This document shows positions 11,001-33,617 of a stretch of 64,000 nt of DNA, in pieces. Source of the stretch: Pseudomonadota bacterium (lineage in GTDB: Bacteria; Myxococcota_A; UBA9042; GCA-2863065). The position numbers and the translations under genes are program-made. Numbering within the stretch: the first letter of the stretch is position 1; each line of letters opens with the position of its first letter. The stretch covers positions 358 to 64,357 of the forward strand of contig SXOO01000062.1 of NCBI GenBank assembly GCA_005776725.1, given 5' to 3'. A model generated the notes under the pieces. The model searched no databases and had not been told where the DNA came from. It worked only from the letters and a program-made list of their open reading frames with translations.

Positions 11001-14000
11001 GAGCTGCGCCAGCATGTAGTCGGTGATCGTGGCCGTTCGGTCTTCCTCTGCGCGCGTCCGCGCGTCGAGGAGCAGGGCCTCGAGATCGTCCCACCGCTCC
11101 AGGATCCCGTAGAGCCGGCGAAGGTTCTGGAACGCCGTCGGCTCCTCCGGGACGCTGAGGCGCACCCGCTCGTAGAACAGCGTGGCGCCAGCCTCGTCGC
11201 CGAGCTCCACCTCGGACACCTCGGCCGCGCGGAAGAGCACCGCCACCCGCTCCACCGCGTCCACTCCGCGCACGCCGAGCACATCCGCCTTGCGGGCGAG
11301 CGCCTTGACCAGCGGCTCGTACGTGGCCTCGGTCTCGTAGACCCCGATGAGCCGATCGAGGGCCTCAGACACGGCCTCCTCGGTGACGGGATCCCCGCTG
11401 CGAACCACGCGCTCGTACGCGTCGGCGGCCGGGCCACCGTCGCCGAGCTCCTCGTAGAGCTGCCCCGCGAGCAACAAGAGGCGCCGGCGGCTCACCTCGC
11501 CGTCAGCGCGCTCCGCACGCCGCTCCACGATCGCCACCCGGTCGCGCAGGCGACCGGTGTCTGCGTAGAGCGCATCCAGCTGCTCGAGGGCACCGACGTG
11601 GTCGGGCTCGACCAGCAACACCCGCTCGAGGGCGTCCAGGGCACGATCGGAGTCGCGCAGCTCACGCCGCGCCACGTCGGCGAGCATGAGCAGCTGGCGC
11701 ACAGAGGCGTTCGAGGTGGCGTAAGGCGACACCTCGGCCAGCACGTCAGCGAGGTCGGCATGGCGGCCAAGCGCGTTCGCCGCGCGCTGGAGGCCACTCT
11801 CGGCCTCTCGTTCGTCGGGGTAGTGCCGCAGCGCGTCAGCATACGACTCGAACGCGCCGACCCAGTCGCCACCCTGGTGCTCGAAGCGGTCGCCGGCCTG
11901 CCGGAAGTACCCGGCGCGATCTCGGTCGCTGTCAGCGAGATCAGCCCGCACGGTGAGCATGCGCACCTCGCCCCGCCAATCTCCGGCGGCGCGGTACCAC
12001 GGCTGGAGCACGTCGGCGACGCGGCGCGCCAGCTCCGGCTGCTCCTCGACGGCCACGAGTCGGTCGAGCGCCTCTGCCGCTGCCTGAGCGGCGGCGCCTC
12101 GTTCGTCGCCGATCGCTGCGATCCACGCGTCGACCGCCAGCTCGTTCTGGCCGAGGTAATCTGCGAGCACTCGGCCGATCCGAACATACACGGACACCCG
12201 GTCGTCGCTTGTCGGGAGGCGCCGCCGGAGCAGCGCCACCAGATCGTCCCAGCGCTCGAAGCGCTGGAAGAGCCCCTCCAGCCGGTCCATCGCCTCGGCG
12301 TCGCGCTCGTCGAGCAGGAGCAGCGACTGATAGACCTCGATGGCGTCCTCGGCGCGCTCGAGCTCGTCCTCGAGCAGGTTCGCTGTGGCCGTATAGACGG
12401 CGCGTTTGTCCTCCACCTCCCAAACGAGGTCCGCCTTCCGGCGGTACACCGCGAGGAGGCTCTCCCAGTCCTGCCGTTGCGCGTGCAGGCGCTCGAGCGC
12501 GCCCAGGGTCTCGAGATCCTCGGGGTCTAGCGCGAGCACCCGCTCATAGCAGTGGGTGGCGCGCTCGAGGTCGCCGAGCTGCGCCTCGGTGAGCTCCGCC
12601 AGCCGGCGCGTGAGCACAGCCTCCGCGCCCGCGTCGTCGTCCAGGCGTGCCACCCGATCGACCGCTGCGAGCCGGTCACGGCCCGAAGGTCCGTCGTCCA
12701 GACCCAGTACGGCGCTGTACAAGGCGGCGACCTCGGCCCACCGGCCGAGCTGACCGGCCAGGGCTTCGAGCTGCGCGCGCGGCTTCGGCTCGCCGGGCGA
12801 GAGCGCGACCTGCTGAAGCCGGTGCATGAAGGCCACGGCGGGATCGACCGCGAGACCAGCCAGCTCGTCGTGCAGGCTCTCGAGCGTACCCACGTCGGCC
12901 TCGCGGCCGAGGCGATCGTTGAGGACGAGCGCGAGCCGCGCCGCATCCCCCTGCCGGCGCAGGACCGGCTCGATGAGCGACGTGACGCCCTCTCGGGCAC
13001 GGTCGGCCTCGAAGAGCTCCCAGAGCTGCAAGACAGCGGCGTCGTTGTCCGGGTGGTCGCTGAGCGAGCGCTCGAGGCGATCCAACGCCGCGTCGAGATC
13101 ACCGCTGCGGTCAGCCAGGATCCGCGCGGCCCGGGCGTCCAAGGCGGCGCGCTTCGCGCGGTCGCCCGTGAGCGCACGCTCGGCGTCCACGAGCCCCACG
13201 AGGTCGGCCCACCGCGACTCGGCCTCGTAGACGCGCTGTAGGCCATCGACCGCCTCGTCGTCACCGGGGATCCTAGCGAGGATGCGCTGATACGCCTCTG
13301 CCGCCAGCTCGGGCTGCTCGAGGATCTCCTCGTGGAGCCGACCGAGGCGAATGAGCGCCAGGCGAAGGCGATCCACGTCGCCCTCGGTCTCGAGCACGTC
13401 GATCCGCCGGCGGAGCACCCGCTCGTACGCCGGCCAATCCTGCTCGGAGTACGTGAGCTCCTCGAGCTCACCGATCGTGGCCACCGCGTTCTCGTCGAGG
13501 TCTAGGATGGCCTCCAGCGCGCGAGCGGCGTCGCGTGGGCGGCGGAGCCGGTGGAGCCAGATCTCCGCGGAGCGGCGCAGCAGCTCGATCCGCGCCCCGC
13601 TGGCGGCCGTGCCGGATCCGGCGCCTACCCGACCCTCGACCTCGCCGTACCAGGCTGCGAGCGTCTCGAAGTCGTCGCATGCCTCGGCCCAGCGCTCGAG
13701 CCCCGAGGTCAGGGGTCCGATGCCGATACGAGCGGCCGACCGGTCCAGCTCCACCTCGGCGGCCTGCCTCGCCCACTTGAACGCCTCGTCCTCGCGACGC
13801 CGCGCTCCCAAGGCGCGCGCGCCGCGCATCAGCGCCGACTCGGCCTCCTCCGTGGCGCCGGCCAGGTCCGCCACGCGCCGAAGGACCGGTAGGAGGCGAT
13901 CGACCTCCCCGGCGGCCTCGGAGCGCTCAGCGAGCCGCGTCGCGATGTCCAGGCGGGCGGGGTACAAGACGAAGAGGCGGCTCAGCCGCTCCGTGGCGCC

Positions 14001-16421
14001 TGCCGCATCGGCCAGCGGGCCGTCCACGACCGAGACACACTCGAGCTGCACCTCCAGTCGCAGCTGTGCATCGGTCTCTCGGCCGGCCTGCTCGTCGAGG
14101 AACGCCACGTAGCCCCGGTAGTCGCCTTGGGCCGCGTAAAATGCCTTGAGCTCTTCCCACGCCTTCTCGGCCACCAGGATCCGCTGCAGGCCGATCCGGG
14201 CCGGCGCGTGCCCCGGGACCGCTTCGAGCACCTCGCGCCACGCATCCTTGGCCTCGGCGCCGCGCTGGAGACGCTCCCAGAGCACCTCGGCCTGCTTCTC
14301 GAGGAGCTCAGCGCGACGCCGCTTGGTCTTGGAGTGTTCGAGTCGCGTGCCGAGGTGGGCGCACAGCTTCTCCCAGTAGCCCTCTGACTCGAACAGCGTG
14401 AGCAGGGCCTGCGCCGCGCGCTCGTTCTTCGGGTTGAGCTCGAGGAGCGCCTCCCAGTGCCGGATGGCCTCGTCGTTCCAGTGCAGCTTGTCCGTGGCCA
14501 GGGCGGCCAACTCGGCCAGGATCGGCTCGCGACGCGCCGGCTCGGTGAGGCCGAGCTCGGACGTGTAGGCGGCGTAGAGGCGCTCGAGGTTGTGCTTGGC
14601 CTTGTAGATGTCTCGGAGCTTCTGCACCACCTCGAGGTTCTGCGGGTCGATCTCGAGGATCCGCTCGAGGAAGGGCACCGCCTGGCTGTCGGAGCTCATC
14701 TTCGACAGATAGAGGTTGGCGACCTGGTGGAAGAGGTCGAGGAGCGTGTCCTCGTCGGTGGTGGCGGCGATCTTCTTCTGGAGGACCTGGACCAGCTCGG
14801 ACCAGCGGGCCGCGTCCTCGTACCGCTGGGCCAGAGTGTCGAGCGCCTTGGTGTTGGTGGGGGAGAGCTGGACGATGCGTCCGTAGGTCTGGACGACCAG
14901 CTCGTCCACCGGGAGCTTCTGAGGATCCTGATAGATATCGATGATCTGGAAGAGGTACTGGACCTTTTGCTCGGTCTCCTCGACCCCGTCGCCGAGGCGC
15001 CGGATCTGTCCGTTCAGGATCTCGACGAGCGCGTGCCACTTGCCCATCGCCCGGTAGAGCTCGGTGAGGCGTGCGGTGGCCACCTCGTTCGTGGCGTCCT
15101 CGGTGAGGACCCGCTTGAAAGCCTCCACGGCCATGTCGGGGCTCTCGAGGTGCGACTCGGCGAGGCGCGCCATCTCCAGTGCCACGGCCACCCGGTCCTC
15201 GCGGGGCACGATCGCCAGCTTCTGCGCGAGCACGGCGTGGAGTCGGCGGAAGTCGGCCTTCTCGGCGAAGTAGGCCTCGAAGAAGCCGATCGCCGTCATG
15301 TCGCGCGGGTCGGTGGCGCGCACGCGTCGGAACAGCTTCTCGGCCTCGTCGAGGTCGCCAGCGAGGCGCCAGGTGATCTCGCCCTCGCGGATGAGCCATC
15401 GCTTCTCGTCGTTGCGGCTCTTGGTGGACCGCCGCGCCGCCTGCAACAGCGCGCGAGCCCCCGCGGTGTCGCCGGCCGCGCTCATGGACCCCTCGAGCGC
15501 GTCGATCGCTTCGGGATCCGCTGGATCGGCCACGAGCGCCTCGCGCAGAAGCTCTGCTGCGAAGGCCTCCTCAGTGTGAATCAGCGCCAGCCCGCAGAGG
15601 CGGGCCGCAGCCACACGGGAGCTCCGCGCTGCCGCGAGGTGGGACTGCGCCACTGCGCGGTCTGGCGCCACCTGCAGAAGCTCCGCCGCGAGCTCCGGCG
15701 CCCCCGGATCTTCGTGGAATGCCTCGCGAAGGTGCGCGACGTCTTGGCTCTCGCCATAGAGCGCGAGGAGCGCCCGGGCGCGCTCGGCCCCGGGGGTGGC
15801 CGCGTCGGCCGCCGCGCGGAGGTCCATCGCCGAGAGCTCGGCTTGACGCTCGAGCTCTGTGACCGCGTCGAGGCCCGCCCGCACCACCGGATCCTCGCTG
15901 CCCGCCGCCAGCGCGCGCTCGAACGCGGCCCGCGCCTTCGCAGGCTCGTTGGCCTGGAGCGCCAGGGCGCCCCGGCGACCCTCGAGGGCAGCGCGACGCT
16001 CGGGCGACGCCGCCAGCGGCGCTGCCAGTTCGAGGTACCCGCGCTCTCGGGCCGCGTCCGGCTCGGCGCGCTCGGCCAACGCGGAGAGCGTGTCATCCGA
16101 GGGGCACGCCCGGAAGGCCTCGGCCAGCACCCTCGCTGCCTCTTCCGCGTCGCCCACGTGGAACAGGAGGCGGGCGCGACGCTCGAGCAGGCTCCCCCGC
16201 ACGGCGTCCGCCGCGAGGCGCTCCAGCACGGAGTCGAGCACGGAGAGCAGCCGAGCCCGAACGCTCTGCACCTCGTCGTGATCGAACACCGCCTCAGGAA
16301 CGCTCGCGGCCTGCTCGAGCAGCTGGTGGAGCGCCGAGGGTTCCGGCAGCCCGGCCTCGACGGCCGACTCCAGGAGTTCGAGCGGTTCCAACGTGGAGGA
16401 GCGAGCGGTGGATGCGGTCAT
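5001..16421 (-). CDS. Giant tetratricopeptide (TPR) repeat protein, 3806 aa
   Basis: A single uninterrupted 11.4-kb ORF. The sequence is almost entirely helical-repeat units with a recurring pattern such as ...A..AYERVL.LDP.D.EAL.ALE.LY...ERW.DL..LL.RR... (ERWDDLVALLRRRL, QDWESLLAVYRRKADL, ARWSELVQVLQKKI, GKWHALVEILNGQI and others). All listed plus-strand ORFs inside it are R/G/P-rich antisense shadows. Confidence 0.85.
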   Translation of the reverse strand: MTASTARSSTLEPLELLESAVEAGLPEPSALHQLLEQAASVPEAVFDHDEVQSVRARLLSVLDSVLERLAADAVRGSLLERRARLLFHVGDAEEAARVLAEAFRACPSDDTLSALAERAEPDAARERGYLELAAPLAASPERRAALEGRRGALALQANEPAKARAAFERALAAGSEDPVVRAGLDAVTELERQAELSAMDLRAAADAATPGAERARALLALYGESQDVAHLREAFHEDPGAPELAAELLQVAPDRAVAQSHLAAARSSRVAAARLCGLALIHTEEAFAAELLREALVADPADPEAIDALEGSMSAAGDTAGARALLQAARRSTKSRNDEKRWLIREGEITWRLAGDLDEAEKLFRRVRATDPRDMTAIGFFEAYFAEKADFRRLHAVLAQKLAIVPREDRVAVALEMARLAESHLESPDMAVEAFKRVLTEDATNEVATARLTELYRAMGKWHALVEILNGQIRRLGDGVEETEQKVQYLFQIIDIYQDPQKLPVDELVVQTYGRIVQLSPTNTKALDTLAQRYEDAARWSELVQVLQKKIAATTDEDTLLDLFHQVANLYLSKMSSDSQAVPFLERILEIDPQNLEVVQKLRDIYKAKHNLERLYAAYTSELGLTEPARREPILAELAALATDKLHWNDEAIRHWEALLELNPKNERAAQALLTLFESEGYWEKLCAHLGTRLEHSKTKRRRAELLEKQAEVLWERLQRGAEAKDAWREVLEAVPGHAPARIGLQRILVAEKAWEELKAFYAAQGDYRGYVAFLDEQAGRETDAQLRLEVQLECVSVVDGPLADAAGATERLSRLFVLYPARLDIATRLAERSEAAGEVDRLLPVLRRVADLAGATEEAESALMRGARALGARRREDEAFKWARQAAEVELDRSAARIGIGPLTSGLERWAEACDDFETLAAWYGEVEGRVGAGSGTAASGARIELLRRSAEIWLHRLRRPRDAARALEAILDLDENAVATIGELEELTYSEQDWPAYERVLRRRIDVLETEGDVDRLRLALIRLGRLHEEILEQPELAAEAYQRILARIPGDDEAVDGLQRVYEAESRWADLVGLVDAERALTGDRAKRAALDARAARILADRSGDLDAALDRLERSLSDHPDNDAAVLQLWELFEADRAREGVTSLIEPVLRRQGDAARLALVLNDRLGREADVGTLESLHDELAGLAVDPAVAFMHRLQQVALSPGEPKPRAQLEALAGQLGRWAEVAALYSAVLGLDDGPSGRDRLAAVDRVARLDDDAGAEAVLTRRLAELTEAQLGDLERATHCYERVLALDPEDLETLGALERLHAQRQDWESLLAVYRRKADLVWEVEDKRAVYTATANLLEDELERAEDAIEVYQSLLLLDERDAEAMDRLEGLFQRFERWDDLVALLRRRLPTSDDRVSVYVRIGRVLADYLGQNELAVDAWIAAIGDERGAAAQAAAEALDRLVAVEEQPELARRVADVLQPWYRAAGDWRGEVRMLTVRADLADSDRDRAGYFRQAGDRFEHQGGDWVGAFESYADALRHYPDEREAESGLQRAANALGRHADLADVLAEVSPYATSNASVRQLLMLADVARRELRDSDRALDALERVLLVEPDHVGALEQLDALYADTGRLRDRVAIVERRAERADGEVSRRRLLLLAGQLYEELGDGGPAADAYERVVRSGDPVTEEAVSEALDRLIGVYETEATYEPLVKALARKADVLGVRGVDAVERVAVLFRAAEVSEVELGDEAGATLFYERVRLSVPEEPTAFQNLRRLYGILERWDDLEALLLDARTRAEEDRTATITDYMLAQLYENQLARPSDALDRYEAILSRDPSFAAARRALEAALDSIESGPRAAELLDRAYVGAGDVLGQVKILELRLARWPDDDAVGGRLRLARLLEEGLGDPGRAFAVLGEAAGIEWRATGTLRTELVRLAGLTGAFDDLEILDREALARARGDEARLKILLEMGRVAREDRNDLDVAEGILRETLSSFPDHRETLEAMRSLYEATGRTREVIDTLRHEVERTAAASDRIALLYRIATLLFEREHDAAGAADTYEEILRNDPAEARAYRALESLRFADNDFPAVAALLRREIAVTRDAEHRLGLRQRLAVLCREQLGDPEQAFAATVALLGEAPTDPVGRSVLEQLSAEDPTDEVVFERLGKLYRDARDFETLIGLHRQRVEAMPGELLKGLDAIRTLQLTELQDRAAAYETEKAMLRKAPTEPRRWEQAEDSAGRLGLLVDLIGVYGQIVKDDPSNVDLALRAARLAEERLKRPSDAVVFYESVSAFDESHDGAAQALRRLYEQLERWRELADLEERLAVRASGRERERAWLAVAALRERLDDAEGAARALESLVTVEPGHRQALARLEALARQRGVSEDVESVLHRLLAVSHDDEAREVRYRLALLRLEGGDPAGALDFLREVLAGLTTGHSLRGKAIASTEEVLKEDHAPALRGLAADLLERAYAGDSKVSWHRWEAVYLAQLGVCEDHEHRMLLQQELGQLYEERAGEPQRALTAFAAAYALEPGNTAIEQTLEGVAGRHGLEAALYGVYSEHVESMPSEARVRVLARLAALAEGALSDADAAARWREQRLELVPGDVSALAALEQHYQSRGDHAAVLRVLTARLDVAETEADRIALLHRLGDLSASLNDVAAAERRWTEIRELAPGDRRALDRLEASTRARGAHSELAAVLRQKIDLAQEDDEDRLDWLTDLARLQERELGQLEDAARTYEESLVFSPQNILALTSLERLYPQISDHRGHLRILEAKRGQFADPRAKAEADLQIARLLIDELDEPDRALDLLRLILGQFPTHEGAVGVLESLLEDPRVALMASFALEPVYLTAERWKPLERAMELQLEIRARDGMDGAERIELLRRLAEIRNNELDDPDGALRALGEAFALDPSDEALRENLEEVAGGAGRWTVLVDSVRDALGAVSSPELAMALHAWIARLSEAHLDDPSGAIDAWRAVLAYDELEPTALSELGRLLEATGRFEERVDVLRREIAIAPHSESRHLRRRLAEITDTEVQNPEAAFQLYVELVAEDAEDEECVMALDLLGQAHDWLRDSAARMLLPHYRSKGQWNDVVRWLLAGVDDAPDRVERLEAAAAVAEQHLGDADAAWGYLKLAVLAAPERIELLQRLTAISGLSEGTISRAEELLALTVQAAGKATALETRRELLLRAAQLAGSTLGKRDVAERCYREVLVVDSENTEALQALLALYAAEDRPADLVGVAEALFALVVDREERLELARTMARAGGRVGDADRVEDGWRRVLELDDGDEEALQALEAHYRAAESYTALAEILERRARRVEDPDVLARLKVELGRIRGELLADPDGAIEAYEEAIEADGWCEPALLALELLYTEHAMPEDLARILGTRLQALNGAARIPVLARLATIAEEDLGDLELAVSRFEEMLVLDAGEVGALDALIRVSEAQGRFDRLALLLEQRAAVSRDVAHRIGLLVRAAQLWENPLSDLARSREVAESAHALDPNNRVTLGLLAQLFERTGELDKAIEAYEGLVRRSDDPEERIATQLTLGRLHLFGKDNTTKALAIYKDILGARPDHAEATARLKEVLYRRESWEALVPVLEREVQRASDARAQADAIFELATVLSDRVKDLDAAWRWLRRGVEVKRDHPGLVAAMIDQLERRGDTAELLPLLSWHVSYLEAKRRFQELAPQALRLARLHEARRDADKAYSAYQVASTADSRNVVVQLGLGRTAFETGRLDKALQTLQALLLVQHELEDSAARLELFVLLAKVCVEAGDKAKAKRHVARLLQLDPAHAEGLALQKKLG

Positions 16422-16571: not shown

Positions 16572-17450
16572 TCAGTGCACCCACTTGTCGGGCGGGCGGA
16601 CCACCCGGAGATGCGACGGCTTGTTCTTCGGCTCGCCCGCGAACGCTCGGCGCAGCTTGCCAGGACGCCACATCCCCGAGGTCATCAGGTAGGCCGTGAG
16701 CATCCCGCCGAGGTGCGCCAGGGCTTGTGAGGCCCCGGGCGCGAGGTCTCCATAACGCGCACTGGGGATGAGGTCTATTGCGCTCAGCAAGACCAGTCCG
16801 ATGACGAGGTAGCTCGCCTTGAGCGGGAGCACCATGCTGGCCATGATCGTGGTGTTCGGCTGGTAGACCGCGAACGCAACGATGAGGCCCTGCGAGGCGC
16901 CGGAGAAGCCAGCCACGGCCACCTCCGGCCAGCTGTCCACGAGCGCGTCGCCCGCCACCACCGCGACCCCGCCGCCGGCCACGCATGAGAGCAGGAAGAC
17001 GAGGAAGCGCCTGGCTCCCCAGCTTCGCTCGAACTGCGGGCCGAACCAGACCAGCGCGAACGCGTTGAAGAGGAGGTGAAAGCCGGCGCCATGCCCGAGG
17101 TGCTGGATCAACGTGGCGATGACGAACGCCGCCACGAACAGCAGCCCCCGCTCGTTCTGGCCCCACGGAGAGCGCCAGGCCACGACGAGCCCGCCGAGGA
17201 ACAGCGCCGCCAGGACGGCGTCCAAGAGCGGGTTGGTGCCCACGAGGTGGAGCGCGCCGTAGCTCAAGACCCGCCAGACCTCCCCGGCCAGGACCCGAGT
17301 GGTGACGAGTGTGCCGTACACCTCGAGCTCCGGGCGGCGCAGCACTGCCATGACGAGCTGCACGAGGTACACCGCGACGAGCGCGAAGAGCACGCGACGG
17401 ACCGTGTGCGGGAGGGCGGTCAGGCCGAGGAAGCGTAGTAGGGCATTCAC
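16572..17450 (-). CDS. Rhomboid-family intramembrane serine protease
   Basis: The C-terminal 293 codons of track ORF 16572..18062. It is multi-TM, with HLLFNAFALVWFG, the catalytic GFSGA (GxSG) motif and AHLGGMLTAYL (catalytic His). I place the start at the GTG at 17450 (VNALLRFLGL...), because the longer N-terminal extension is antisense to the Omp85 gene. Confidence 0.8.
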   Translation of the reverse strand: MNALLRFLGLTALPHTVRRVLFALVAVYLVQLVMAVLRRPELEVYGTLVTTRVLAGEVWRVLSYGALHLVGTNPLLDAVLAALFLGGLVVAWRSPWGQNERGLLFVAAFVIATLIQHLGHGAGFHLLFNAFALVWFGPQFERSWGARRFLVFLLSCVAGGGVAVVAGDALVDSWPEVAVAGFSGASQGLIVAFAVYQPNTTIMASMVLPLKASYLVIGLVLLSAIDLIPSARYGDLAPGASQALAHLGGMLTAYLMTSGMWRPGKLRRAFAGEPKNKPSHLRVVRPPDKWVH

Positions 17451-17505
17451 GGGGGCGCATGATAGGGGGTGTCCGCCGGGGGTCAAAAGGGCGTACGCTG
17501 CCCGG

Positions 17506-19236
17506 GTGTCGCGACTCGGCGCCCCCCTGCTCCTGTGCCTCTCTGTCGGGCTCGCCCCCCCCTGCCGCGCCGATCGCCTGGCCGAGCTGGGCGTGTTCGA
17601 GCGCGAGTCCGTGGAGGCCGCGCTCACGGAGCTGGGCCTCGAGGTCGACAATGCCCCCGACGGCAAGCGGCTCGGCCTCGTGCGCGTGAAGAACTTCGAG
17701 GTCTTCGGGGAGAAGGACTCCTCGTTCCTGCGGTGGTTCAACCTCTTCCATCGCACCACCACGGAGGAGACCATCGCCCGCGAGGTGCTCCTGCGTCCGG
17801 GAGACCGCTGGGACCAGGAGCGGGTCGACGAGACGGTCAGAAACCTCCAGAGCCCGGTGTATTCCAACGTCATCGTGGCCGTCCCCACCCGGTCGGCGGA
17901 GCGCGACACGGTCGACCTCCTGATCGTCACGCGGGACGTATGGAGCCTCCGCTTCAACTCGAACATCCAGTTCCAGGGGGACTCCATCACCCTCTTGTCC
18001 TTCTCCCTCGCCGAGAACAACTTCCTCGGCTGGCGGAAGCAGATGAACGTCTTCTTCAACATGGATCAGGGCGCGTTCGAGGTGGGCCCGGCGTACGTGG
18101 ACCCGAACATCCTCGGCACCCACCTCACCCTCGACAGCCGCGCGAGCGTCATCTTCGGGCGCGACACCCTGGAAGCCGAGGGGACGCGGAGCGCCACCAC
18201 GCTCGAGTACCCGCTCTGGTCGCTGGACCAGACGCTCGGCGGGAGCGTCAACGTCACGCACTACGACTCGCTGGTCCGCAGCTACCAGGGCTCGGGGGTA
18301 CGCACCTACGACGCCCCCGGCACGCTCGGCGACGACGCCATCCCGTGGGCCTACCGCTACACCTACGTCGAGGGCTCGGCGAAGGCCAAGGCCGCGTTCG
18401 GGCGCGGACTGAAGCACCTCGTGAGCGCCGGCTACGAGGCGTACTGGCTGGAAGCCTCGCTGCCGGACGACTTCGCGTACACCGGCGTGGCGCGGAGGCA
18501 GTTCGAGTACGTCGCGCTCCCGCGGGGCGAGCTGTCCTCGGCGCTCACCGCCAGCTACGAGCTCTACACGCCGAAGTACGCCACCTACCGCGACTTCGCC
18601 ACCTACGATCTCCGCGAGGACTACCTCGTGGGCCCCTACTTCGGGTACTTCGTCACCCAGGGCCTCCGCGCTCTGGGCAGCGACGACACCTACACACGCG
18701 TCGCGACCACGCTCCAGGTCGCGGACTCGGTGGGTGGCGCCTACCTCAAGGCCTCGGCCAGCTGGTCCGCGCGGCTCGAGGTGGGCTCCTTGCGGGACCA
18801 TCGAAGCACGCTCTCGTTCTACGGGGCCACGCCTTCGCTCTTCTCCGCCCTCCGCGTCGTCGTACGCTCGGACCTCAGCGCGTGGCTCTCAGGAGAGAAC
18901 GTCGGGACCTACGCCCTGGGCGGCGACTCCGGCCTTCGCGGCCACTCCGTGGGGGCGCTGAACGGCTCGCGCCGGTTCCGGACCAACGTGGAGCTCCGCT
19001 CGATCCCTTGGCGGGTCTGGGCGCTGCGTGTGGGCGGCGTGGTGTTCTGGGACTTCGGCGACGCCGTGAACGACCTCAGCGACCTCGCGCCGGTGCACGA
19101 CGTCGGGCTGGGCCTCCGCATCCTCATCCCTCAATTCAACACGTACGTCTTCCGGCTGGACTGGGCCTTCGCCACCGAAGGGGTCGAAGCCGGCTGGCCA
19201 GGACGCCTGAGCTTCGGCTTCCTTCAGGCGTTCTGA
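17506..19236 (+). CDS. Omp85/BamA-family outer-membrane beta-barrel protein with POTRA-like N-terminus
   Basis: In-frame GTG at 17506 gives VSRLGAPLLLCLSVGLAPPCRA (signal peptide). POTRA-like segment: LGLVRVKNFEVFGE...REVLLRPGDRWDQERVDETVRNL. The rest has long alternating beta-strand-like sequence. C-terminal RLDWAFATEG...GRLSFGFLQAF ends in an aromatic Phe, as is typical of OM barrels. Divergent from the rhomboid gene, with a 55-bp spacer. Confidence 0.75.
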   Translation: MSRLGAPLLLCLSVGLAPPCRADRLAELGVFERESVEAALTELGLEVDNAPDGKRLGLVRVKNFEVFGEKDSSFLRWFNLFHRTTTEETIAREVLLRPGDRWDQERVDETVRNLQSPVYSNVIVAVPTRSAERDTVDLLIVTRDVWSLRFNSNIQFQGDSITLLSFSLAENNFLGWRKQMNVFFNMDQGAFEVGPAYVDPNILGTHLTLDSRASVIFGRDTLEAEGTRSATTLEYPLWSLDQTLGGSVNVTHYDSLVRSYQGSGVRTYDAPGTLGDDAIPWAYRYTYVEGSAKAKAAFGRGLKHLVSAGYEAYWLEASLPDDFAYTGVARRQFEYVALPRGELSSALTASYELYTPKYATYRDFATYDLREDYLVGPYFGYFVTQGLRALGSDDTYTRVATTLQVADSVGGAYLKASASWSARLEVGSLRDHRSTLSFYGATPSLFSALRVVVRSDLSAWLSGENVGTYALGGDSGLRGHSVGALNGSRRFRTNVELRSIPWRVWALRVGGVVFWDFGDAVNDLSDLAPVHDVGLGLRILIPQFNTYVFRLDWAFATEGVEAGWPGRLSFGFLQAF

Positions 19237-19257: not shown

Positions 19258-22200
19258 ATGCTGCTGCGCGTGAAGCGCGTCATCGTGGCCCTATTCGTCT
19301 TCGGCTGCAGCGAGTTCCGAGACCGCGTCCCGTCCGATACGGGCGAGACCGGTACCGACTCCGCCGACATCAAGAACCCCTGCGCCGGCGTCGACTGCGA
19401 CGACGGCGACCCGTGCACCTCCGATCGGTGCGTCGCGGCTACCGGCGAATGTGAGCACCCGCCCGTCCCGGACGGCGCTTCCTGCGACGATGGCGCGTTC
19501 TGCACCGCCAACGACTCCTGCTCGGCCGGGGTCTGCGGAGGCACTGCCACGAGCTGTCCCACCGACGGGACCCCGTGCACCACCGGCGTGTGCGACGAGG
19601 ACGGAAACACCTGCAAGGTCGTGCCGCTGGCCGACGCAGCCCCCTGCGACGACGGCGACACCTGCACAACGGGGGAGACGTGCGCCGCGGGCGCATGCGG
19701 CGGGGGGAGCCCGGTCGCCTGCGAGGGTGCCATCGGGACGTGCACTCCGTCGGTCTGCGTGAGTGGACAGGGCTGCGTCGCCACGCCCGCGCCCGACTCC
19801 ACGAGCTGCGACGACGGAGACGCGTGCACCGAGGGTGACGTGTGCACCGGCGGGACCTGTACCGGGGTGCCCAAGGACTGCTCGGGCCTCGACGAGAAAT
19901 GCAGGATCGCCGTGTGCTTCGAAGGGCAATGCTCGCTAACCAACGCCCCGGCCGGCCCCTGCGACGATGGAGATGCCTGCACGGTGGGCGACGCTTGCGC
20001 GGCGGGCGCCTGCCAGGGGGCGCCTTTGGACTGTTCGCTGGTGGACGGGCCCTGCGCCGTCGGCTTCTGCGATCCCGGGGGCGCTGGCTGCATCCAGAAC
20101 CCGGTGAACGAGGCTCAGCCGTGCGAGGACGGCGATCTCTGCAGCATCACGTCGGCGTGCGTCTCCGGGTTCTGCGCACTGGTCACCGCGGTCGACTGCT
20201 CTTCTCTGGATGGCCCTTGCGCCATCGGCGCGTGCGTCGTGGCCACGGGCGAGTGCACCACGAAGCCGGTGCTCGACGGCGTCGCCTGCTCCGACGGCGA
20301 CGCGTGCACGCTCGGCGATCAGTGCCTCTCCGGTCTGTGCCTCGGAGACGCCAAGGACTGCGGGAAGTCGGTGATCGCCTGCTGGTCGGTCACCTGCGAC
20401 CCCACCGACGGAAAGTGCAACACGGGCCCAGACGCGCTCCTCGACGGGACGCCCTGTGCCGACGACCTCTTCTGCACCGTCGACGGCGCGTGCGCGGCCG
20501 GCACGTGCGCGAGCGCGCCGCGTGACTGCTCCGGCGCCGCCGGCACATGCCAGGTCGCCGTTTGCGACGAGGGCAACGACGCCTGCGCCCCGGTGCCCGC
20601 CGACGATGGCTCGCCGTGTTCGGATGGGCAGGGCTGCACCACCAGCGACGTCTGCGTCGCGGGCTCTTGCGTCGGACTCGGCACGCTCAGTTGCTCGCAG
20701 CTGGACGGCCCCTGCCACATCGGCGAGTGCAGCGAGGCGGTCGGTGGGTGTACGGCCACGCCGCGCCCCGAGAACGCGGATTGCTCGGACGGGTCCACCT
20801 GCACCACCGGAGATGCCTGCAAGAACGGTGAGTGTATCGGCGGCGCGGTCGACTGCTCCCACCTCACGAGCGGCTGCGCCGTCGGCGTCTGCACCCAAGA
20901 CGCGGGCTGTGTCGCAAACCCGGTGCCGGACGGCGCGTCGTGCTCGGATGGCGTCGAGTGCACTCAAGGCGACGACTGCATCGCCGGCGCGTGTACGCCC
21001 GGCGTCCCCGTCGGGTGCCCGTGCCCGAATCCCGGTCGCGCGATCGAGCTCACGGACGGCTGCGTCACTACGGCCGGCGGTCCACTGCTCGACTCCCAGA
21101 GAGGCTTCACCGTGGCCTTCTGGATGCGGACCACCACGGTCGCCTCGGCCCGTCTGCTCGACCAGCGGGTCAGCGCGTCCGCCGGAGACTCCGACTGGTC
21201 GATCACCTACGAGGCGCCCGGCGGGGTCGGGCAGCTGCGATTCCAGTACGGCAACACTGTGGGAGCCGACAGCCAGCTGGGCATGAGCGGCGTCGCCCTG
21301 AACGACGGGCTCTGGCACTACGTGGCGCTGGTGCGGGACGGCGACGACCTCCGCTGGTGGGTAGACGGGATCGGGCAGCCGGTGGCGACCGCCACGAACC
21401 TCCTGGCACTCACCAACCCTGCGCCGCTTGCGATCGGCTGTGGGCGCTTCGGCGGGGAGCTGTTCAACGGCGCCATCGACGAGGTGGCGATCTGGAACTA
21501 CCCTCGGTATCGCACCTCGCACGCGCCGCCGGACCGCCACCCGGTCACGGCCGGCCTCGTCTCCCTCTTCCGCTTCGACGAGTCGCCTCCCGCGCCGGCG
21601 GACGCCATTACGGGCCTCGCGGCCAACCTCTCTGGCGGCGCCGCCAGCACGGAGTCCGTCTCACCTTCGATGTTCGGCTGTTGCGGCAACGGCTTCGTCG
21701 AGACCGGAGAGGCGTGCGAGCCCGGCTCGAACCCGGGGTGCAGCGGCGCCTGCGAGCTGCCCGCGATCCCGGCGCAGTCAGCCGACTTCGACGGCTCGGG
21801 CTGCATCGTCGTGGACTCCCAGACCCTCATCCCGAGCGTCTCCCTGCTCACCGTGGAGTTCTGGGTGCAGACGACGCAGAAGCCCGCGATTCTCCTCGCC
21901 AAGACCTCCAGCGACGGCAACTCAGGGTGGCGCATCGAGCTCGACGACGCCGGTAAGCCCGTGTTCCGCGGCTTTGACATCAACGGGGGACCCGTGGTCC
22001 ACCTCGGGTCCGCCACGGTCTCGAACGGCCTCTGGCACCACGTCGCGCTCATGAACTTCGCCGGGAACAAGCTCCGCTGGTTCGTCGACGGCGTCGCGGC
22101 GCCCACCAGCACGCTCGACAAGCTGGTCCCGCTCGGCAACACGCACCCGACGCGCCTCGGCTGCGGGCCCACGGGCGCCACGCTACTCGGCCGGCTCGAC

Positions 22201-22395
22201 GGGGTGCACGTGAGCCGGGCGCTGCGGTACTCCACCAACTTCACGCCCTCGAAGTCGCCCGCTCCGGACGCCAACACCGACCTCTTGTTCACCTTCGACC
22301 TCCCGGCGGTGAACGGCACTGTGGTGGACCTCTCGCCCGGTCTGCACGACGGGGCGGGCAACAGCGGGGTCACGATCTTGCCGGTCGCGCCGTGA
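19258..22395 (+). CDS. Cys-rich-repeat lipoprotein with two LamG/concanavalin-like (Laminin_G_3-type) domains, 1045 aa
   Basis: Lipobox ALFVFGC. Roughly 550 aa of reiterated C-D-D-G-[DN]-x-C-T-x-x-D-x-C modules. These are followed by GFTVAFWMRTT...LWHYVALVRDGDDLRWWVDG...FNGAIDEVAIWNY (LamG-like), a CCGNGFVETGEACE myxococcal-type Cys-rich repeat, and a second LamG-like domain (LTVEFWVQTT...LWHHVALMNFAGNKLRWFVDG). Starts 21 bp after the Omp85 stop. Confidence 0.8.
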   Translation: MLLRVKRVIVALFVFGCSEFRDRVPSDTGETGTDSADIKNPCAGVDCDDGDPCTSDRCVAATGECEHPPVPDGASCDDGAFCTANDSCSAGVCGGTATSCPTDGTPCTTGVCDEDGNTCKVVPLADAAPCDDGDTCTTGETCAAGACGGGSPVACEGAIGTCTPSVCVSGQGCVATPAPDSTSCDDGDACTEGDVCTGGTCTGVPKDCSGLDEKCRIAVCFEGQCSLTNAPAGPCDDGDACTVGDACAAGACQGAPLDCSLVDGPCAVGFCDPGGAGCIQNPVNEAQPCEDGDLCSITSACVSGFCALVTAVDCSSLDGPCAIGACVVATGECTTKPVLDGVACSDGDACTLGDQCLSGLCLGDAKDCGKSVIACWSVTCDPTDGKCNTGPDALLDGTPCADDLFCTVDGACAAGTCASAPRDCSGAAGTCQVAVCDEGNDACAPVPADDGSPCSDGQGCTTSDVCVAGSCVGLGTLSCSQLDGPCHIGECSEAVGGCTATPRPENADCSDGSTCTTGDACKNGECIGGAVDCSHLTSGCAVGVCTQDAGCVANPVPDGASCSDGVECTQGDDCIAGACTPGVPVGCPCPNPGRAIELTDGCVTTAGGPLLDSQRGFTVAFWMRTTTVASARLLDQRVSASAGDSDWSITYEAPGGVGQLRFQYGNTVGADSQLGMSGVALNDGLWHYVALVRDGDDLRWWVDGIGQPVATATNLLALTNPAPLAIGCGRFGGELFNGAIDEVAIWNYPRYRTSHAPPDRHPVTAGLVSLFRFDESPPAPADAITGLAANLSGGAASTESVSPSMFGCCGNGFVETGEACEPGSNPGCSGACELPAIPAQSADFDGSGCIVVDSQTLIPSVSLLTVEFWVQTTQKPAILLAKTSSDGNSGWRIELDDAGKPVFRGFDINGGPVVHLGSATVSNGLWHHVALMNFAGNKLRWFVDGVAAPTSTLDKLVPLGNTHPTRLGCGPTGATLLGRLDGVHVSRALRYSTNFTPSKSPAPDANTDLLFTFDLPAVNGTVVDLSPGLHDGAGNSGVTILPVAP

Positions 22396-27421: not shown

Positions 27422-30418
27422 ATGAAAAGACCTCTCCTCTGGGCGGCTGTGCTCCTCTTCGCGTGTGAGTCCGGAGACACCGGCGGCGGCGCTTCGCTGA
27501 ATGCCGGCGACGCTCGTGCGAACGGCAAGACGGACACGCCGTCTGCGGGCGACGACAGCGGTACGCCGGGCTCCGGCAGCGACGGCAGCGACGGCAGCGA
27601 CGGCAGCGACGGCACCCCGAACCCCTGCGCCGAGGACCAGTGTCACATCGACGACGCCTGCTGGGACGCAGGCGACGCGCCCGAGGGCGACCCGTGCCGC
27701 GTCTGCGAGCCCGAGCGCGACGTCTTCACGTGGAGCGACACAGACTCCGCTTGTGATGACGGCGACGCGTGCACCCTGGGCGACGGCTGCACCCTCGGCG
27801 CCTGTATCGGCGCGCCCAAGGTCTGCGTCGACGGCGATCCGTGCACCAACAGCCAGTGCGAGAACGGCGAGTGCGTGCACCCAGGGCGGGCCGGCCCCTG
27901 TGACGACGGCGACGCGTGCACGATCAACGACCGCTGCATGAGCGCGAAGTGCTCCGGCGGGCTCCCGAAGTGCGACGACGGCAACAGCTGCACCACCGAC
28001 GCCTGCGCAGACGGCGCCTGCGATCACACGGTGCTCAACAGCGCCCCATGCGACGACGGCAACCCGTGCACCGAGTCCACCACCTGCGTGGCAGGAGCGT
28101 GCGTCGGCGGCACGCCGGCGCCCTGCGACGACGGCGATCTCTGCACGGCGGACGCCTGCGTGCTGACGGGACCGCTCGGCGCCGGTGGCTGCGTGCACAC
28201 CTCCGTCGCGGCGTACTGCGAAGACTCGAACCCCTGCACCGACGAGGCCTGTGACGCCGCCAAGGGCTGCGTCTACCCGTTCAACTCCATCCCGTGCAAC
28301 GACGACGACGAGTGCACGCTCGCTGACAAGTGCACCACTGGCGCGTGCCGCGGCGAAGACGTCCTCCTCTCCGACAACAACCCGTGCACCAACGACTACT
28401 GCGACCCCGTCGACGGCGTCTACCACACGAACAACCAGTTCCCGTGCGAGGACGGCGACGCGTGCACGGTGGGCGACCTGTGCGACGCCGGGCAGTGTAC
28501 GCCGGGGACGGGCGAGCTCCCTTGCGACGACGGCGAGCCTTGCACAGACGACGCGTGCGAAAAGACGGCGGGTTGCTTCACCACACCGAACACCGCCACC
28601 TGCGACGATGGGTCGGTCTGCACCGAGGACGACGTCTGCGCCAACGGTGAGTGCGACGGCCACGCGATCACGTGCGACGACAGCAACGCCTGCACCACCG
28701 ACAGCTGCGACAAGGTGGAGGGATGCCGCTTCACGCTGATCGTCTCGAACGCCTGCCGCCCCGACATCACGATCACGTACCCGCCCCGCGGCGCGACCAT
28801 CCAGGGGTCTTCGAAGTCAATCACCGTGACGGGAATTGTCACGAGCGGCGCCGCCCCGATGGACACCTTCACGATCAACGGGGCGCCGGTGACGCTGGCC
28901 CCCGACGGGAGCTTCGCGCACCCCGTGGCCACCGAGGTGGGGGGCAACACGCTGGTGATCGACGCCGTGGACGAGCTGGGGGCGGTGCGCCACCGGGTCC
29001 AGGCGTTCCATTGGTCAAGCGTCTATGCGCTGCCCGACAACCTCGAGCAGAAGACGGGCATGGCGGAGCAGGGCCTGGCGATCTGGCTGTCTGGCTCCGC
29101 GCTCGACAAGCTAACCCAGGTGTTCCAGAGCATCGTGGCCGGCCTCACGATCGGGGACTCCATCCAGAACCCGGTGCTTCAGCAGGCGGGCTACAAGATC
29201 CACGTGAACAACCTCACCCATGGCACACCGCAGGTGGCCATGAAGCCCGTGAACGGAGGCATCGAGCTCACCGTCACCGTGAAGAACATCAAGGCCGACA
29301 TCAACGCCGACGGTCAGAGCTTCCTCACCCCTGACTTCGACGGGACCATGACGGTGGCCACGCTCACTGCGACCGCCCAGGTGCAGCTGTCGGTGGACCC
29401 GAGCACGCACACTCTGGTGGCCACGGTCGGCACCGTGAACGTGGCGATGAGCAACCCTTCGATCTCGATCAGCGGCATCATCGGCCTGCTCATCTCCCCG
29501 CTCATCAACCTGCTCGTGCCGATCTTCAAGGGAGACATCGAGAGCACCTTCAGCAGCACGCTCAAGGACGTCATCGGGCCGCTCGTGGCAGACGCGCTGA
29601 ACGGCCTCGCGCTCTCGTTCGACTTCGACCTGCCCTCCTTCGACCCAACGGCCGACCCGGTGGCCGTCCAGGTGGTCACCGACTTCCAGGCGGTCGACTT
29701 CACGCCCGCCGGCGGCGCCCTGATCCTGCGCGGTGGCGCCTACACGAGCCCGGTGGTCACTCCCTACACGAACCTCGGGTCGGTCATTCGAGGCAACTGC
29801 GGCGCACCGGGCTTCAAGCTCACGCCGCCGAAGGCCGCGCCTCTGGAGCTGCTCCTCTCGGACGACCTCATCAACGAGATCCTGTACTCCGCATGGCGGG
29901 GCGGCTTCCTGGAGTTCGATGTGCCGCCGGAGCTGCTCGCCGGCGTCGACGTCTCCCAATTCGGGATCGGCAAGCTCGACGTCAGCGTCTCGGCGATGTT
30001 GGCGCCGGTGGTCAGCGACTGCGCCACGGGGACCTCGACCGTCCACATCGGCGACCTCAAGATCAACGCCGCGCTCGACCTCTTCGGGCAGCAGATGGAC
30101 GTGGTGATGCACGTCAGCCTCACCACGGAGATCGTGTTCTCGGCGGCCGATGGCGAGCTGTCGTTCGGCCTGGCCGCGATCGAGTCGATCGACAGCGACA
30201 TCGCCGTGCTCCAGGAGCACCTCGTGGCGTCGGAGGGCGCCGTGGCCGATCTCGTGAACCAGAACCTGATCCCCGCGCTCATCGGGGGACTCGGCGGCGG
30301 CGCCCTCGGCTCGTTCCCGCTCCCCGAGCTGGACGTGAGCGGCGTCAAGATCGCCATCGAACCTACGTCCGTGAGCCGCGGCCCGGGCCAGACCGTCGTC
30401 TCGGGGAACCTCAAGTGA
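27422..30418 (+). CDS. Cys-rich-repeat lipoprotein with Ig-like domain and C-terminal BPI/LBP-like (TULIP) two-barrel region, 998 aa
   Basis: Lipobox VLLFAC, then a D/G/S linker and ~370 aa of CDDG[DN]xCTxDxC modules. Ig-like segment: [23 protein letters not shown]...[14 protein letters not shown]...[14 protein letters not shown]. The last ~470 aa align by eye to both halves of BPI. N half: [14 protein letters not shown].., [79 protein letters not shown]. C half: [27 protein letters not shown].., ..[22 protein letters not shown]. Confidence 0.75.
   Translation: [998 protein letters not shown]
27575..27610 (+). repeat. In-frame 9-bp microsatellite (GGCAGCGAC) x4 encoding (GSD)n linker
   Basis: Four perfect tandem copies read directly from the sequence, inside the post-lipobox linker of the 27422 gene. 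Confidence 0.9.
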
Positions 30419-32394
30419 AGCGAATCGCCCTCGCCCTCATCACGCTCCTCGGCTGCCACGACCATGGCGACAACGGGAAGCACCTCCCGGTACCAGCCGT
30501 CGCGGCCGATGGCGCAGACGGTGCCGAGAGCGCAGACGGTGCCGACGGTGCCGACAGTGCCAACGGTGCCGACAGCGCGGACGGCACCGAGGGTGCAGAC
30601 AACACCGATGCCAGAGACGGCGGCGCGAGCTGCACGGCCGACGCCGACTGCGACGACGGCCTCGCTTGCACTACCGACGCCTGCGAGGACAGCGCCTGCA
30701 AGCACTCCGTGGCGGCGGACGCGTGCCTCGTGTCCGCGACGTGCCTTGCTGCCGGCGAGCCTGGGCCCGAGCCCTGCCTCGTCTGCGACCCGGCCCAGTC
30801 GCAGAGCTCCCTGACGCCCGCGGCCGGCCCCTGCGACGACGGCGAACCGTGCACCGAGGCCGACAGCTGCTCAGAGGGTGCGTGTGTCGGCGGGCCTGAG
30901 CCCGAGTGCGACGACGGGCTCCCCTGCACCACTGACGCGTGCGCGCTCGAGGTGGGCTGCGTCCACGTTTCGAACGACGAGCCGTGCGACGACGGCGACG
31001 CCTGCACGGAGGGCGACACCTGCCTCCTGGGCCTCTGCGTAGCCGGGGCCACCCAGCAATGCGACGACGAGAACCCCTGCTCGGCCGACTCCTGCGCCGA
31101 GGGCGCCTGCGTCAACGACGTGACCGCGTTCGAGGGCCAGCCCTGCGACGACGGGGACGCGTGCGTCGGCGGGACGGCGTGCTCCGGCGGCGCCTGCGGT
31201 GGAGGCTTGGCGCTGGCCTGCGACGACGGCAACGCCTGCACGATCGACTACTGCGACACGCTCGCCGGGTGCGGGTCGCTCCCCACCGAGTCCCCATGCT
31301 GCACCGGCGTCGTCAGCGTCTGCGACGACGGCGACCCCTGCACCGCCGATGTCTGCGACCCGGTCACGACTGACTGCACCAATCAGCCCATGCTGGCGGG
31401 CACCTCCTGTGACGATGGAGAGCCGTGCACCTCCGGCGACGTCTGCGACACCGATGGCGTCTGCGACGGCGCCGTCACGGCGTGCGACGACGGGAACGTG
31501 TGCACCTCCGACGTGTGCCTCCTGGGCGAGGGCTGCAAGGGCTTCCCCGTGGAGGGCGCGTGCGACGATGGGCTCGAGTGCAGCACCGGCGACACCTGCG
31601 TACTGGGGTTGTGCAAAGCCGACACCACCGCTTGCGGCTGCGTGGCGCCCCACGGCGTCGATGCGGCGAAGGTGGCGTCGCTGCAGATCTCGACCACCTC
31701 CGAGACGGGCGCAGCCCTTGACCTCGACGGCGACCCGACGACCTGTGCGCCCTCCGGCAGCTGCTCGGGAGGGGTCCACAACAGCTTCAGCGTGCTGGCC
31801 GGCCTCGCGAACACGGCCCTCGCCGACTCAATCGCCGGTGGAAGCATCGTGCTCCTGGTCACCGCGCCGGCCGCCGCCTCTGGCGCCTTCGACCTCGTGC
31901 TCTACCAGGGCGAGCTCGACCCGGCCAACGCCGCGTGCGATCTCAACGCCGCCACCTGCGACTACCTCATCGACGCGGCCAGCTTCGATGACGCGTGCAA
32001 GGCGCGCTTCGTGCTCCCCGCCACGCTCTCCGGCACCAAGCTCTCGGCCGGCTCGGTCGACAGCCAGATCCCGTTCTCCATCCCCATCCAAGGGATCACG
32101 CTCGAGGTGGTGGTCTACGCCGCGCGCCTCGAGGGAGAGGTCACGCTGGACGGTGGGAACATCACGGCCTTCACCGGGGTTCTTGGCGGCGCGATCAGCC
32201 AGAGCGCTTTGTTCACCGCGATCGACAACCTCCCGGCGGAGGGGCTCCCCGTTCCGAAGGACCTCATCAAGACGATCCTGCAGACGTCGCTCGAGTACGA
32301 CATCGACACCGACGGCGACGACAAGGGCGATGCGGCCAGCATCGGCCTCACGCTCTCGGGAATCGACGCGGCGCTCACCGGCGTCGCCCCCTAG
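30415..32394 (+). CDS. Cys-rich-repeat lipoprotein with unknown C-terminal domain, 659 aa
   Basis: The in-frame GTG at 30415 overlaps the upstream stop (GTGA at 30415..30418). [14 protein letters not shown] is a lipobox. Next come an A/D/G-rich linker from imperfect 9-bp repeats, ~330 aa of CDDG-type modules, and a ~250-aa Cys-poor C-terminal domain (no family recognised). The track ORF 29893..32394 N-terminal extension overlaps the upstream gene out of frame. Confidence 0.8.
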   Translation: [659 protein letters not shown]

Positions 32395-32480
32395 CTGGCC
32401 CACGCCTCAGCGCTCGCCGGGGAACCCCTCCAACGAAGGCCCTGCAAGGCCCCCTGCTCACCCGCTCCCAAGGTCACCGT

Positions 32481-33617
32481 ATGCACCGCTCCACGCCCTT
32501 CGGGGCGCTCTTCTGCGCCCTCTCCTTCGCTTGCGCCGCCGAGACCACGGAGTCTGCCGAAGCGGCAGCTGACGGCAACGGCGCCGCGGACTCGGCAGAC
32601 GCCGTCGCGGACGCCGCCGACGCCGCCGACGCATCCGATGCCTCTGCTGACGGCGCAGACGGCGCCGACGGCATCGACGGCGCCACCGATGGCACCGACG
32701 CGGCGCTCGTCGATCCCCCGCTCCCGGATTGGCCAGCGAACCAGCCGGGGCTCGACGACCCCACGGCGCGTAAGTGGTTCCGCGCCGGCGCCTGGTACAA
32801 GGAGAACCCGGACGAGCTCGATACGCAGATGAAGGGGCTCTTCGACGCTGCCTACACCGGTCCGCTCGGCGATCCCGCCGGCATCGTCACCTGCCACGCC
32901 GGCTCCAAGGCCAGCGGAGCAACCGCCGCCAAGGTGTGGTCGCGTATCCACGTCCCGGACACGGTCATCGTGCTGGCGCCCAACCACGTCAACGTCGGCG
33001 CCCCCGCCGCCATCTGGAACGCCGGTCCCTGGCTCGTCCCGGGCCTCGCCGTTCCGGTTCGCGACGACATCGTGACGCGTTTCCTCGAGCTGCTCCCGGG
33101 CGAGCTCGAGGGTGATCGCGTGGCCTTCGAGCACCAGAACGCACACCCGAGCGAGATGATGCTCCCGTACCTCACGCGGAAGAACCCGAACGCGAAGGTG
33201 GTGTTCCTCTCGTTCTTCGACGAGGAGAAAGCCGACTATGCGAACTTCGACGCGGCGCGCGTGAAGACGTTTGCGTCCGCGGTGGCGACCGTGGTCCGGG
33301 AGCTCGAGGCGAAGGGCGAGAAGGTCCTGCTCATCGCGTCTATGGACCTCTCGCACTATGAGGCCCTCGTCGACTTCGACCCCAAAGACGCCATCATGAT
33401 GGACCACATCGGGCGCTTCGACACGGCGGGGCTTCGGACCTCCGTGGTTGAGGGCAACTTCACGATCTGCGCCGAGATCGCCGTCTCGATCTGGATGGAG
33501 GCCATGCTGGAGCTGGGCTACACGGGCCTAGACTTCAACGAACGCGGCAACTCGGTCCACCTCTCGGGCGTGGACGCCGCGGTCGGTTACCCTGCGGGTA
33601 TCGTGTGGCGCCGATGA
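32481..33617 (+). CDS. Memo-family (AmmeMemoRadiSam system protein B-like) protein with lipoprotein signal
   Basis: The ATG at 32481 gives [18 protein letters not shown] (lipobox), followed by an acidic A/D linker. Memo-like motifs: [25 protein letters not shown] (HAGxxxSG), VLAPNH, SMDLSHY and NFTICAEI. The track ORF start at 31995 is an upstream extension overlapping the previous gene. Confidence 0.7.
   Translation: [378 protein letters not shown]

Follow-up and report, generated by a model that had tools for sequence, protein, structure and literature searches.

We describe a bacterial gene, from a member of the Myxococcota, whose product ends in a region of ~450 residues for which structure prediction supports a double-TULIP module of the BPI/LBP/CETP type, that is, two helix-sheet-helix barrels joined by a central sheet. 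The gene lies in a 64,000-nucleotide stretch of contig SXOO01000062.1 (assembly GCA_005776725.1), hereafter the window, where an open reading frame (ORF) at 27422..30418 (+) encodes a protein of 998 amino acids (aa). Judging from its sequence, the protein is probably an exported, lipid-anchored lipoprotein, in which a lipobox, a linker, a Cys-rich stalk, an immunoglobulin (Ig)-like sandwich and the double barrel follow one another in that order. We consider it reasonably probable that it serves as a stalk-displayed, lipid-anchored double-TULIP carrier or extractor of lipids that works together with a partner lipoprotein encoded by the next gene.

Sequence homology to BPI and LBP

A word-indexed search recovered six homologues of the protein and the use of a profile brought the number to 23, all of the named ones being hypothetical proteins of Myxococcota metagenome-assembled genomes (MAGs). 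The two Pfam families that describe the halves of BPI, PF01273 (LBP_BPI_CETP) and PF02886 (LBP_BPI_CETP_C), have gathering scores of 28.8 and 23 bits, respectively. PF01273 matched aa ~584-721 above its cut-off when the region was searched in isolation (30.4-31.1 bits, E=2.3e-7 to 3.7e-7), and reached 27.9 bits, just below the cut-off, on the full-length protein. The same profile matched 12 of the 23 relatives individually (E≤1). When the 23-member family profile was searched against the PDB (177,635 sequences) using HMMER, LBP and BPI were the sole significant matches, represented by mouse LBP (4m4d, E=1.1e-6) and human BPI (1bp1, E=2.1e-6; 1ewf, E~2e-6). A single-sequence search of the PDB returned noise only, with DNA polymerase eta as the best match (E=1.3). 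On these profile comparisons, the likeness of the N half to BPI and LBP is well beyond chance.

An initial annotation of this gene, made by a model from the DNA sequence without database searches, had aligned both halves of the module with mammalian BPI by eye. The five motifs that it quoted are present in the protein (at aa 551, 591, 681, 808 and 961), and its three pairings in the N half were reproduced by the HMMER profile alignment. Its start of the region at 29010 was one base out of frame; read in frame, the region covers 29012-30415, with the barrels themselves starting near 29063. In the C half the alignment is not supported by sequence. The proposed Pfam scan recovered the N-terminal family (best E=2.3e-7) and not the C-terminal one, PF02886 scoring 13.6-14.6 bits (E=0.023-0.044) against its cut-off. 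The best PF02886 stretch coincides with the LELLLSDD... segment, and the profile matched one of the 23 members only. A family profile restricted to the C half retrieved no BPI-family entry from the PDB. The best match of that profile, a trypanosome variant surface glycoprotein (E=0.09), was taken as chance.

Predicted fold of the double barrel

AlphaFold2 (AF2) models were built on the 23-sequence alignment, and all structural statements made here are predictions. The model of aa 531-998 had a mean predicted local distance difference test score (pLDDT) of 80.4 and a predicted template modeling score (pTM) of 0.77, while a model of aa 444-998, which takes in the Ig-like domain, reached a pLDDT of 85.1 and a pTM of 0.83. 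Five independent models were concordant (pLDDT 77-85). Barrel 1 is made up of a strand, helix A, long antiparallel strands and a 41-residue helix B, and it is followed by the strands of the central sheet and then by a loop, where pLDDT is 54-56 (fragment residues 250-270). Barrel 2 is made up of a strand, helix A', three long strands, a 26-residue helix B' and closing strands.

The initial annotation had named two outcomes that would refute it, the lack of a significant profile match to the TULIP/BPI families and a predicted fold other than paired barrels, and neither was observed. Paired barrels were found, and the top five Foldseek matches in the PDB were BPI, LBP and CETP (E 1e-21 to 1e-18), with template modeling (TM) scores in the range 0.47-0.60. 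Among them were BPI (1ewf, E=1.7e-21, TM 0.59/0.60, 497 columns; 1bp1, E=9.4e-21), LBP (4m4d, E=6.4e-20) and CETP (2obd, E=1.4e-19). Because the alignments to BPI and CETP extend over ~500 columns, both halves of the module are covered. Clostridium P47/OrfX proteins came next (E ~1e-9, TM 0.25-0.34), followed by the single-barrel TULIPs SPLUNC1, BPIFA1, beta-carotene-binding protein, Der f 7, YceB and Mdm12. The model of aa 444-998 yielded a concordant ranking. A BPI-type barrel in the C half, unsupported by sequence, is therefore supported by the predicted fold.

Architecture of the protein and its gene

The features of the gene and of its partner are collected in Table 1. The ORF is preceded by GGAG 7 nt 5' of its ATG start codon, and G+C content is ~70% across the whole window. 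Two further elements of the initial annotation, a lipoprotein and a Cys-rich array fused to the barrels, are borne out: the N-terminus reads as a lipoprotein signal with the lipobox LFA/C, and the array is recognized by the Pfam family Dicty_CTDC. The array, ~375 residues long, is presumed to form a disulfide-rich stalk. Its 55 Cys residues imply an oxidizing compartment, which supports export.

Between the stalk and the barrels stands the Ig-like sandwich, which is found directly N-terminal to the double barrel throughout the family. The Pfam match that identifies it, Glucodextran_B, spans aa 447-525 in our protein and is shared by 18 of 23 family members. In the AF2 model the domain is all-beta (pLDDT 87-96), and it gives partial Foldseek matches to the Ig-like modules of sulfite dehydrogenase and glucodextranase. 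The grand average of hydropathy (GRAVY) is +0.42 for the double-barrel module versus -0.37 for the stalk. A scan of the 998-aa protein and its neighbor against NCBIfam gave no meaningful match.

Table 1. Features of the double-barrel gene and its partner in the window
Feature	Position	Strand	Basis and remarks
Start codon and lipoprotein-type signal peptide	27422..27466	+	Read from the translation; lipobox Cys15, +2 residue Glu
Acidic low-complexity Gly/Ser/Asp linker, aa 16-68	27467..27625	+	Composition; isoelectric point (pI) 4.05
About 9 Cys-rich repeats, aa 69-443, 55 Cys	27626..28750	+	Pfam Dicty_CTDC, E=3.6e-21, 9 stretches
Ig-like beta-sandwich, aa 444-530	28751..29011	+	Pfam Glucodextran_B, E=6e-8 (fragment), 32.9 bits vs cut-off of 27
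N-terminal TULIP barrel and central-sheet strands (predicted), aa 548-775	29063..29746	+	Pfam LBP_BPI_CETP, family profile, model, Foldseek
Inter-barrel loop, aa 776-806, with nearly invariant Cys793	29747..29839	+	Least confident part of the model
C-terminal TULIP barrel (predicted), aa 807-998, and stop codon; Cys867	29840..30418	+	Secondary structure of the model, Foldseek; PF02886 E=0.023
Partner lipoprotein, 659 aa	30415..32394	+	GTG start overlaps the double-barrel stop codon (GTGA); translational coupling

Family and distribution

An exhaustive hidden Markov model (HMM) search of 1.84 billion representative sequences found 1930 clusters at E≤1e-3, 1116 at E≤1e-10 and 382 at E≤1e-30. Most of the best 150 matches cover the sandwich and both barrels through to the C-terminus, in host proteins of ~550-1300 aa. 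When patterns were scanned against GTDB genomes, with each species represented by one, we found 49 loci, none from a cultured isolate, and these were labeled almost entirely as Myxococcota, Myxococcales, Nannocystaceae, Bradymonadia, Polyangia or 'Deltaproteobacteria'. Since the patterns were drawn from the C half of the family, the scan is uninformative on more distant bacterial double barrels. The family has two main architectures: proteins of ~1000-1030 aa with a long Cys-rich stalk, as in the window, and proteins of ~650-700 aa with a single repeat. C-type lectin domains are present in some members, including a Lectin_C domain in the relative P0021.

Eukaryotic contamination as the source of the gene was considered and is ruled out by the ~70% G+C, the bacterial lipobox and the 4-nt gene overlap, as well as by the placement of relatives on a chromosome of 9.3 Mb and on MAG contigs as long as 1.9 Mb.

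Partner gene and neighborhood

The partner repeats much of the plan of the double-barrel protein, with a lipobox, an acidic linker, Cys-rich repeats (Dicty_CTDC E=7.4e-14) and a C-terminal domain of 258 aa (31618-32391). It is found directly 3' of the double-barrel gene in two related MAGs (L001 and L002) as well, aligning end to end, where the double-barrel modules are 59% and 38% identical, respectively, to that of the window. By tblastn, 23 of 51 related loci, which make up the long-stalk clade, encode the partner's C-terminal domain on the same strand 3' of the double-barrel gene. Profile searches of this domain gave no sequence match in Pfam, NCBIfam or the PDB, and a word-indexed search found one relative. 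When the domain was compared with the double-barrel family by hhalign, the match was confined to the Cys-rich repeats of one alignment member.

Among the Nannocystaceae-type loci, which encode short relatives, we found no alternative conserved neighbor, the downstream ORFs not being conserved across the clade. Three near-identical Nannocystaceae-type MAGs share an ORF of ~225-256 aa 3' of the short double-barrel gene (L030 5575-6309, L044 5519-6193 and L045 3007-3777), and it is common only to these three. By eye, from its histidine motifs, it resembles a membrane protein of the fatty-acid hydroxylase or sterol desaturase type, a likeness to which we gave no weight.

Other genes in the window were noted. 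A Memo-like gene (PF01875) follows the pair at 32445-33617 (+) and does likewise in the closest MAG relative (L001 13101-14195). Upstream, at 19258-22395 (+), is a gene for a 1045-aa lipoprotein-like protein with Cys-rich repeats and two C-terminal Laminin_G_3 / ConA-like domains, and it seems that in this genome one type of stalk is combined with different 'heads'. Directly 5' of this gene is a 645-aa ORF (17299-19236, +) with high third-position G+C, which by eye resembles an Omp85-type outer-membrane barrel; it has no Pfam match at E≤0.001. A giant ORF of 3806 aa, consisting largely of TPR repeats, occupies 5001-16421 (-).

Proposed function and alternatives

In the mechanism that we favor, the two barrels would surround hydrophobic pockets in which acyl chains or other lipids are bound. 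That the barrels hold lipid is inferred by analogy with every characterized member of the fold. The module would then move lipids between the envelope of the producing cell and another membrane, either that of a prey or neighbor cell or one across its own periplasm. The partner, standing on a similar stalk, may modulate or receive the cargo, much as TipB acts on TipA in Bdellovibrio bacteriovorus (see below). The C-type lectin domains of some relatives would fit a targeting of the device to cell surfaces, and the Bradymonadia and Nannocystaceae among the hosts are lineages that include predators.

Several observations weigh against a lipid carrier that works with a partner. The hydrophobic cavity is itself assumed from the predicted fold, and the fold agrees with BPI at a TM of only ~0.6 with a high root-mean-square deviation (RMSD, ~8 Å). 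The C half falls short of the PF02886 cut-off and, as a profile of its own, finds no member of the BPI family in the PDB. The partner is missing by tblastn from the short Nannocystaceae-type relatives, and it is unlike TipB in that it is not a small C2-like sandwich and belongs to no recognizable domain family. Every member of the family, moreover, comes from an uncultured MAG.

With BPI and LBP as the closest matches in both structure and sequence, the module might instead be a BPI-like antibacterial weapon that binds the lipopolysaccharide (LPS) of Gram-negative prey and permeabilizes the outer membrane as neutrophil BPI does. The hosts are Myxococcota, many of which are predatory, and include Bradymonadia. 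TipA, furthermore, destabilizes bilayers, and its authors suggest a BPI-like permeabilization. However, LPS binding by BPI relies on a strongly cationic N-terminal domain, whereas the double-barrel module of the window protein has a pI of 4.2 and a net charge of -27 to -28, and its N barrel (pI 4.26) has 8 Lys and Arg residues versus 19 Asp and Glu. Net charge of the module ranges from -15 to -75 in all 21 full-length relatives. Human BPI also has a disulfide in its N domain (Cys135-Cys175), which is absent here, the stretch between aa 446 and 792 being devoid of Cys. A nearly invariant Cys pair is found instead, one member in the inter-barrel loop (Cys793) and the other in the C barrel (Cys867); in fragment numbering these residues are C263 and C337, and both show at least 90% conservation. 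Most family-invariant residues are located in the C half, though it is the N half that resembles BPI by sequence. Acidity, the missing disulfide and the conservation of the C half all point away from BPI's own mechanism, and a strongly acidic module leads us to expect lipid handling like that of CETP, PLTP or TipA, not BPI-like electrostatic binding of LPS. We regard a weapon of this type as quite unlikely.

A second alternative is that the protein carries or senses a hydrophobic small molecule that is not a membrane lipid, such as a carotenoid, a signaling lipid or a secondary metabolite, in the manner of insect Takeout/JHBP proteins or the beta-carotene-binding protein. The TULIP barrel type seen here binds such ligands, and the Foldseek matches include 9ink (beta-carotene-binding, E~2e-4), SPLUNC1 and Der f 7; Myxococcota are also known in general to make many hydrophobic metabolites. 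Those proteins are single-barrel, however, whereas the module is matched best by lipid-transfer proteins that have two barrels and align over their full length, and the pair is adjoined not by biosynthetic genes but by genes for HEAT-repeat, Memo-like, LamG and TPR proteins. A carrier or sensor of this type therefore strikes us as decidedly improbable. The most doubtful of the alternatives is a structural or adhesive head without lipid cargo, in which the fold was reused or its likeness overstated by prediction from a shallow alignment: the 23 sequences behind the models, the modest superposition on BPI noted above and the lectin-like heads on neighboring stalked lipoproteins (Laminin_G_3) and in P0021 speak for it, but HMMER, which is independent of AF2, gives BPI and LBP as the sole significant PDB matches, the five independent models agree, and a lipid tube would fit both the positive GRAVY and the long amphipathic elements.

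Significance

TULIP lipid-transfer proteins have long been considered eukaryotic, and the bacterial ones are few and poorly studied. Until about 2016-2017 it was generally accepted, as the initial annotation also stated, that full BPI-like proteins with two barrels occur mainly in eukaryotes; this view has since been outdated by the clustering of AFDB models in 2023 and by the structures of Bdellovibrio TipA. As bacterial BPI-like double barrels have already been published (2023; 2025/26), the surprise is limited, and the window protein is an uncharacterized addition to them. Literature searches for a BPI-like protein of Myxococcota found nothing specific on the family, its stalk or its partner.

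A bolder proposal, which we think unlikely but worth stating, is that the Myxococcota family is the prokaryotic group closest in sequence to eukaryotic BPI/LBP/CETP and forms with its partner a two-component cell-surface device for lipid extraction that is directed at other cells, in which the partner's domain gates the barrel as TipB does. If the family were the closest prokaryotic group, the two-barrel architecture would have a bacterial origin, or would have been transferred between Myxococcota and early eukaryotes. With 1116 clusters at E≤1e-10, the family is a useful data point on the origin of BPI/CETP-type proteins, and it is a candidate for how uncultured Myxococcota handle foreign lipids or their own. 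What makes it valuable for follow-up is the direct and significant sequence link to the eukaryotic N domain, together with a conserved partner that lacks a recognizable domain family.

Comparison with known systems

The module shares with vertebrate BPI, LBP, CETP and PLTP two pseudo-symmetric barrels, a central sheet, a length of ~450 residues, an extracytoplasmic location and sequence homology in the N barrel. Unlike these proteins it is bacterial, and it forms the C-terminal part of a lipoprotein of 998 aa, preceded by a stalk and an Ig-like domain. It differs from BPI in particular in being strongly acidic instead of cationic, in having a Cys pair in the linker and C barrel in place of the N-domain disulfide, and in a C barrel that remains below the Pfam threshold.

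By analogy, the nearest functional precedent is TipA of B. bacteriovorus (bd2538/bd2539 = TipA/TipB), a BPI-like double TULIP for which crystal structures are available (bioRxiv 10.1101/2025.09.09.675085). TipA is a secreted protein with lipids in its lumen that binds and destabilizes bilayers, and TipB, encoded in the same operon, opens it; its authors noted as well that some bacterial double TULIPs are fused to other domains, beta-rich ones among them (bioRxiv 10.1101/2025.09.09.675085). Shared with TipA/TipB are an exported bacterial double TULIP, a two-gene operon with a partner, a beta-sandwich associated with the N barrel and host lineages linked to predation. The differences lie in the parts. 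TipB is a C2-like sandwich of 170 aa, whereas the partner here is a stalked lipoprotein of 659 aa. The sandwich of the window protein is fused N-terminally and is Ig/Glucodextran_B-like, and neither a C2 nor an ExsB structure was among the top 50 Foldseek matches. DUF2785, the (mis)annotation of TipA, was matched by none of the 23 family members (E≤1), a weak test in which TipA is represented by its annotation only; there is accordingly no sign of close sequence kinship with TipA. The likeness to TipA/TipB is architectural only.

Human BPI has been found to cluster with bacterial AlphaFold models, for example UniProt A0A2D5ZNG0 with a TM of 0.81 (Barrio-Hernandez et al. 2023, PMC10584675). Compared by description only, these bacterial members of the BPI cluster align with human BPI over its full length, as does the module studied here, and the paper describes no stalk, lipoprotein anchor or partner for them. 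Other bacterial relatives are more distant. P47/OrfX has the same superfamily fold, but its TM of 0.25-0.34 is far below that of BPI despite E~1e-9. YceB likewise has the superfamily fold (Foldseek E=2e-3) but a single barrel versus the two found here, and DUF1439 scored 11.8 bits on the module (E=0.22) against a cut-off of 25.9. For YceB and P47/OrfX, no link to the eukaryotic TULIPs can be detected by sequence (Levine 2019, PMC6791001). The Myxococcota family, unlike both, has a significant and direct sequence link to the eukaryotic N domain.

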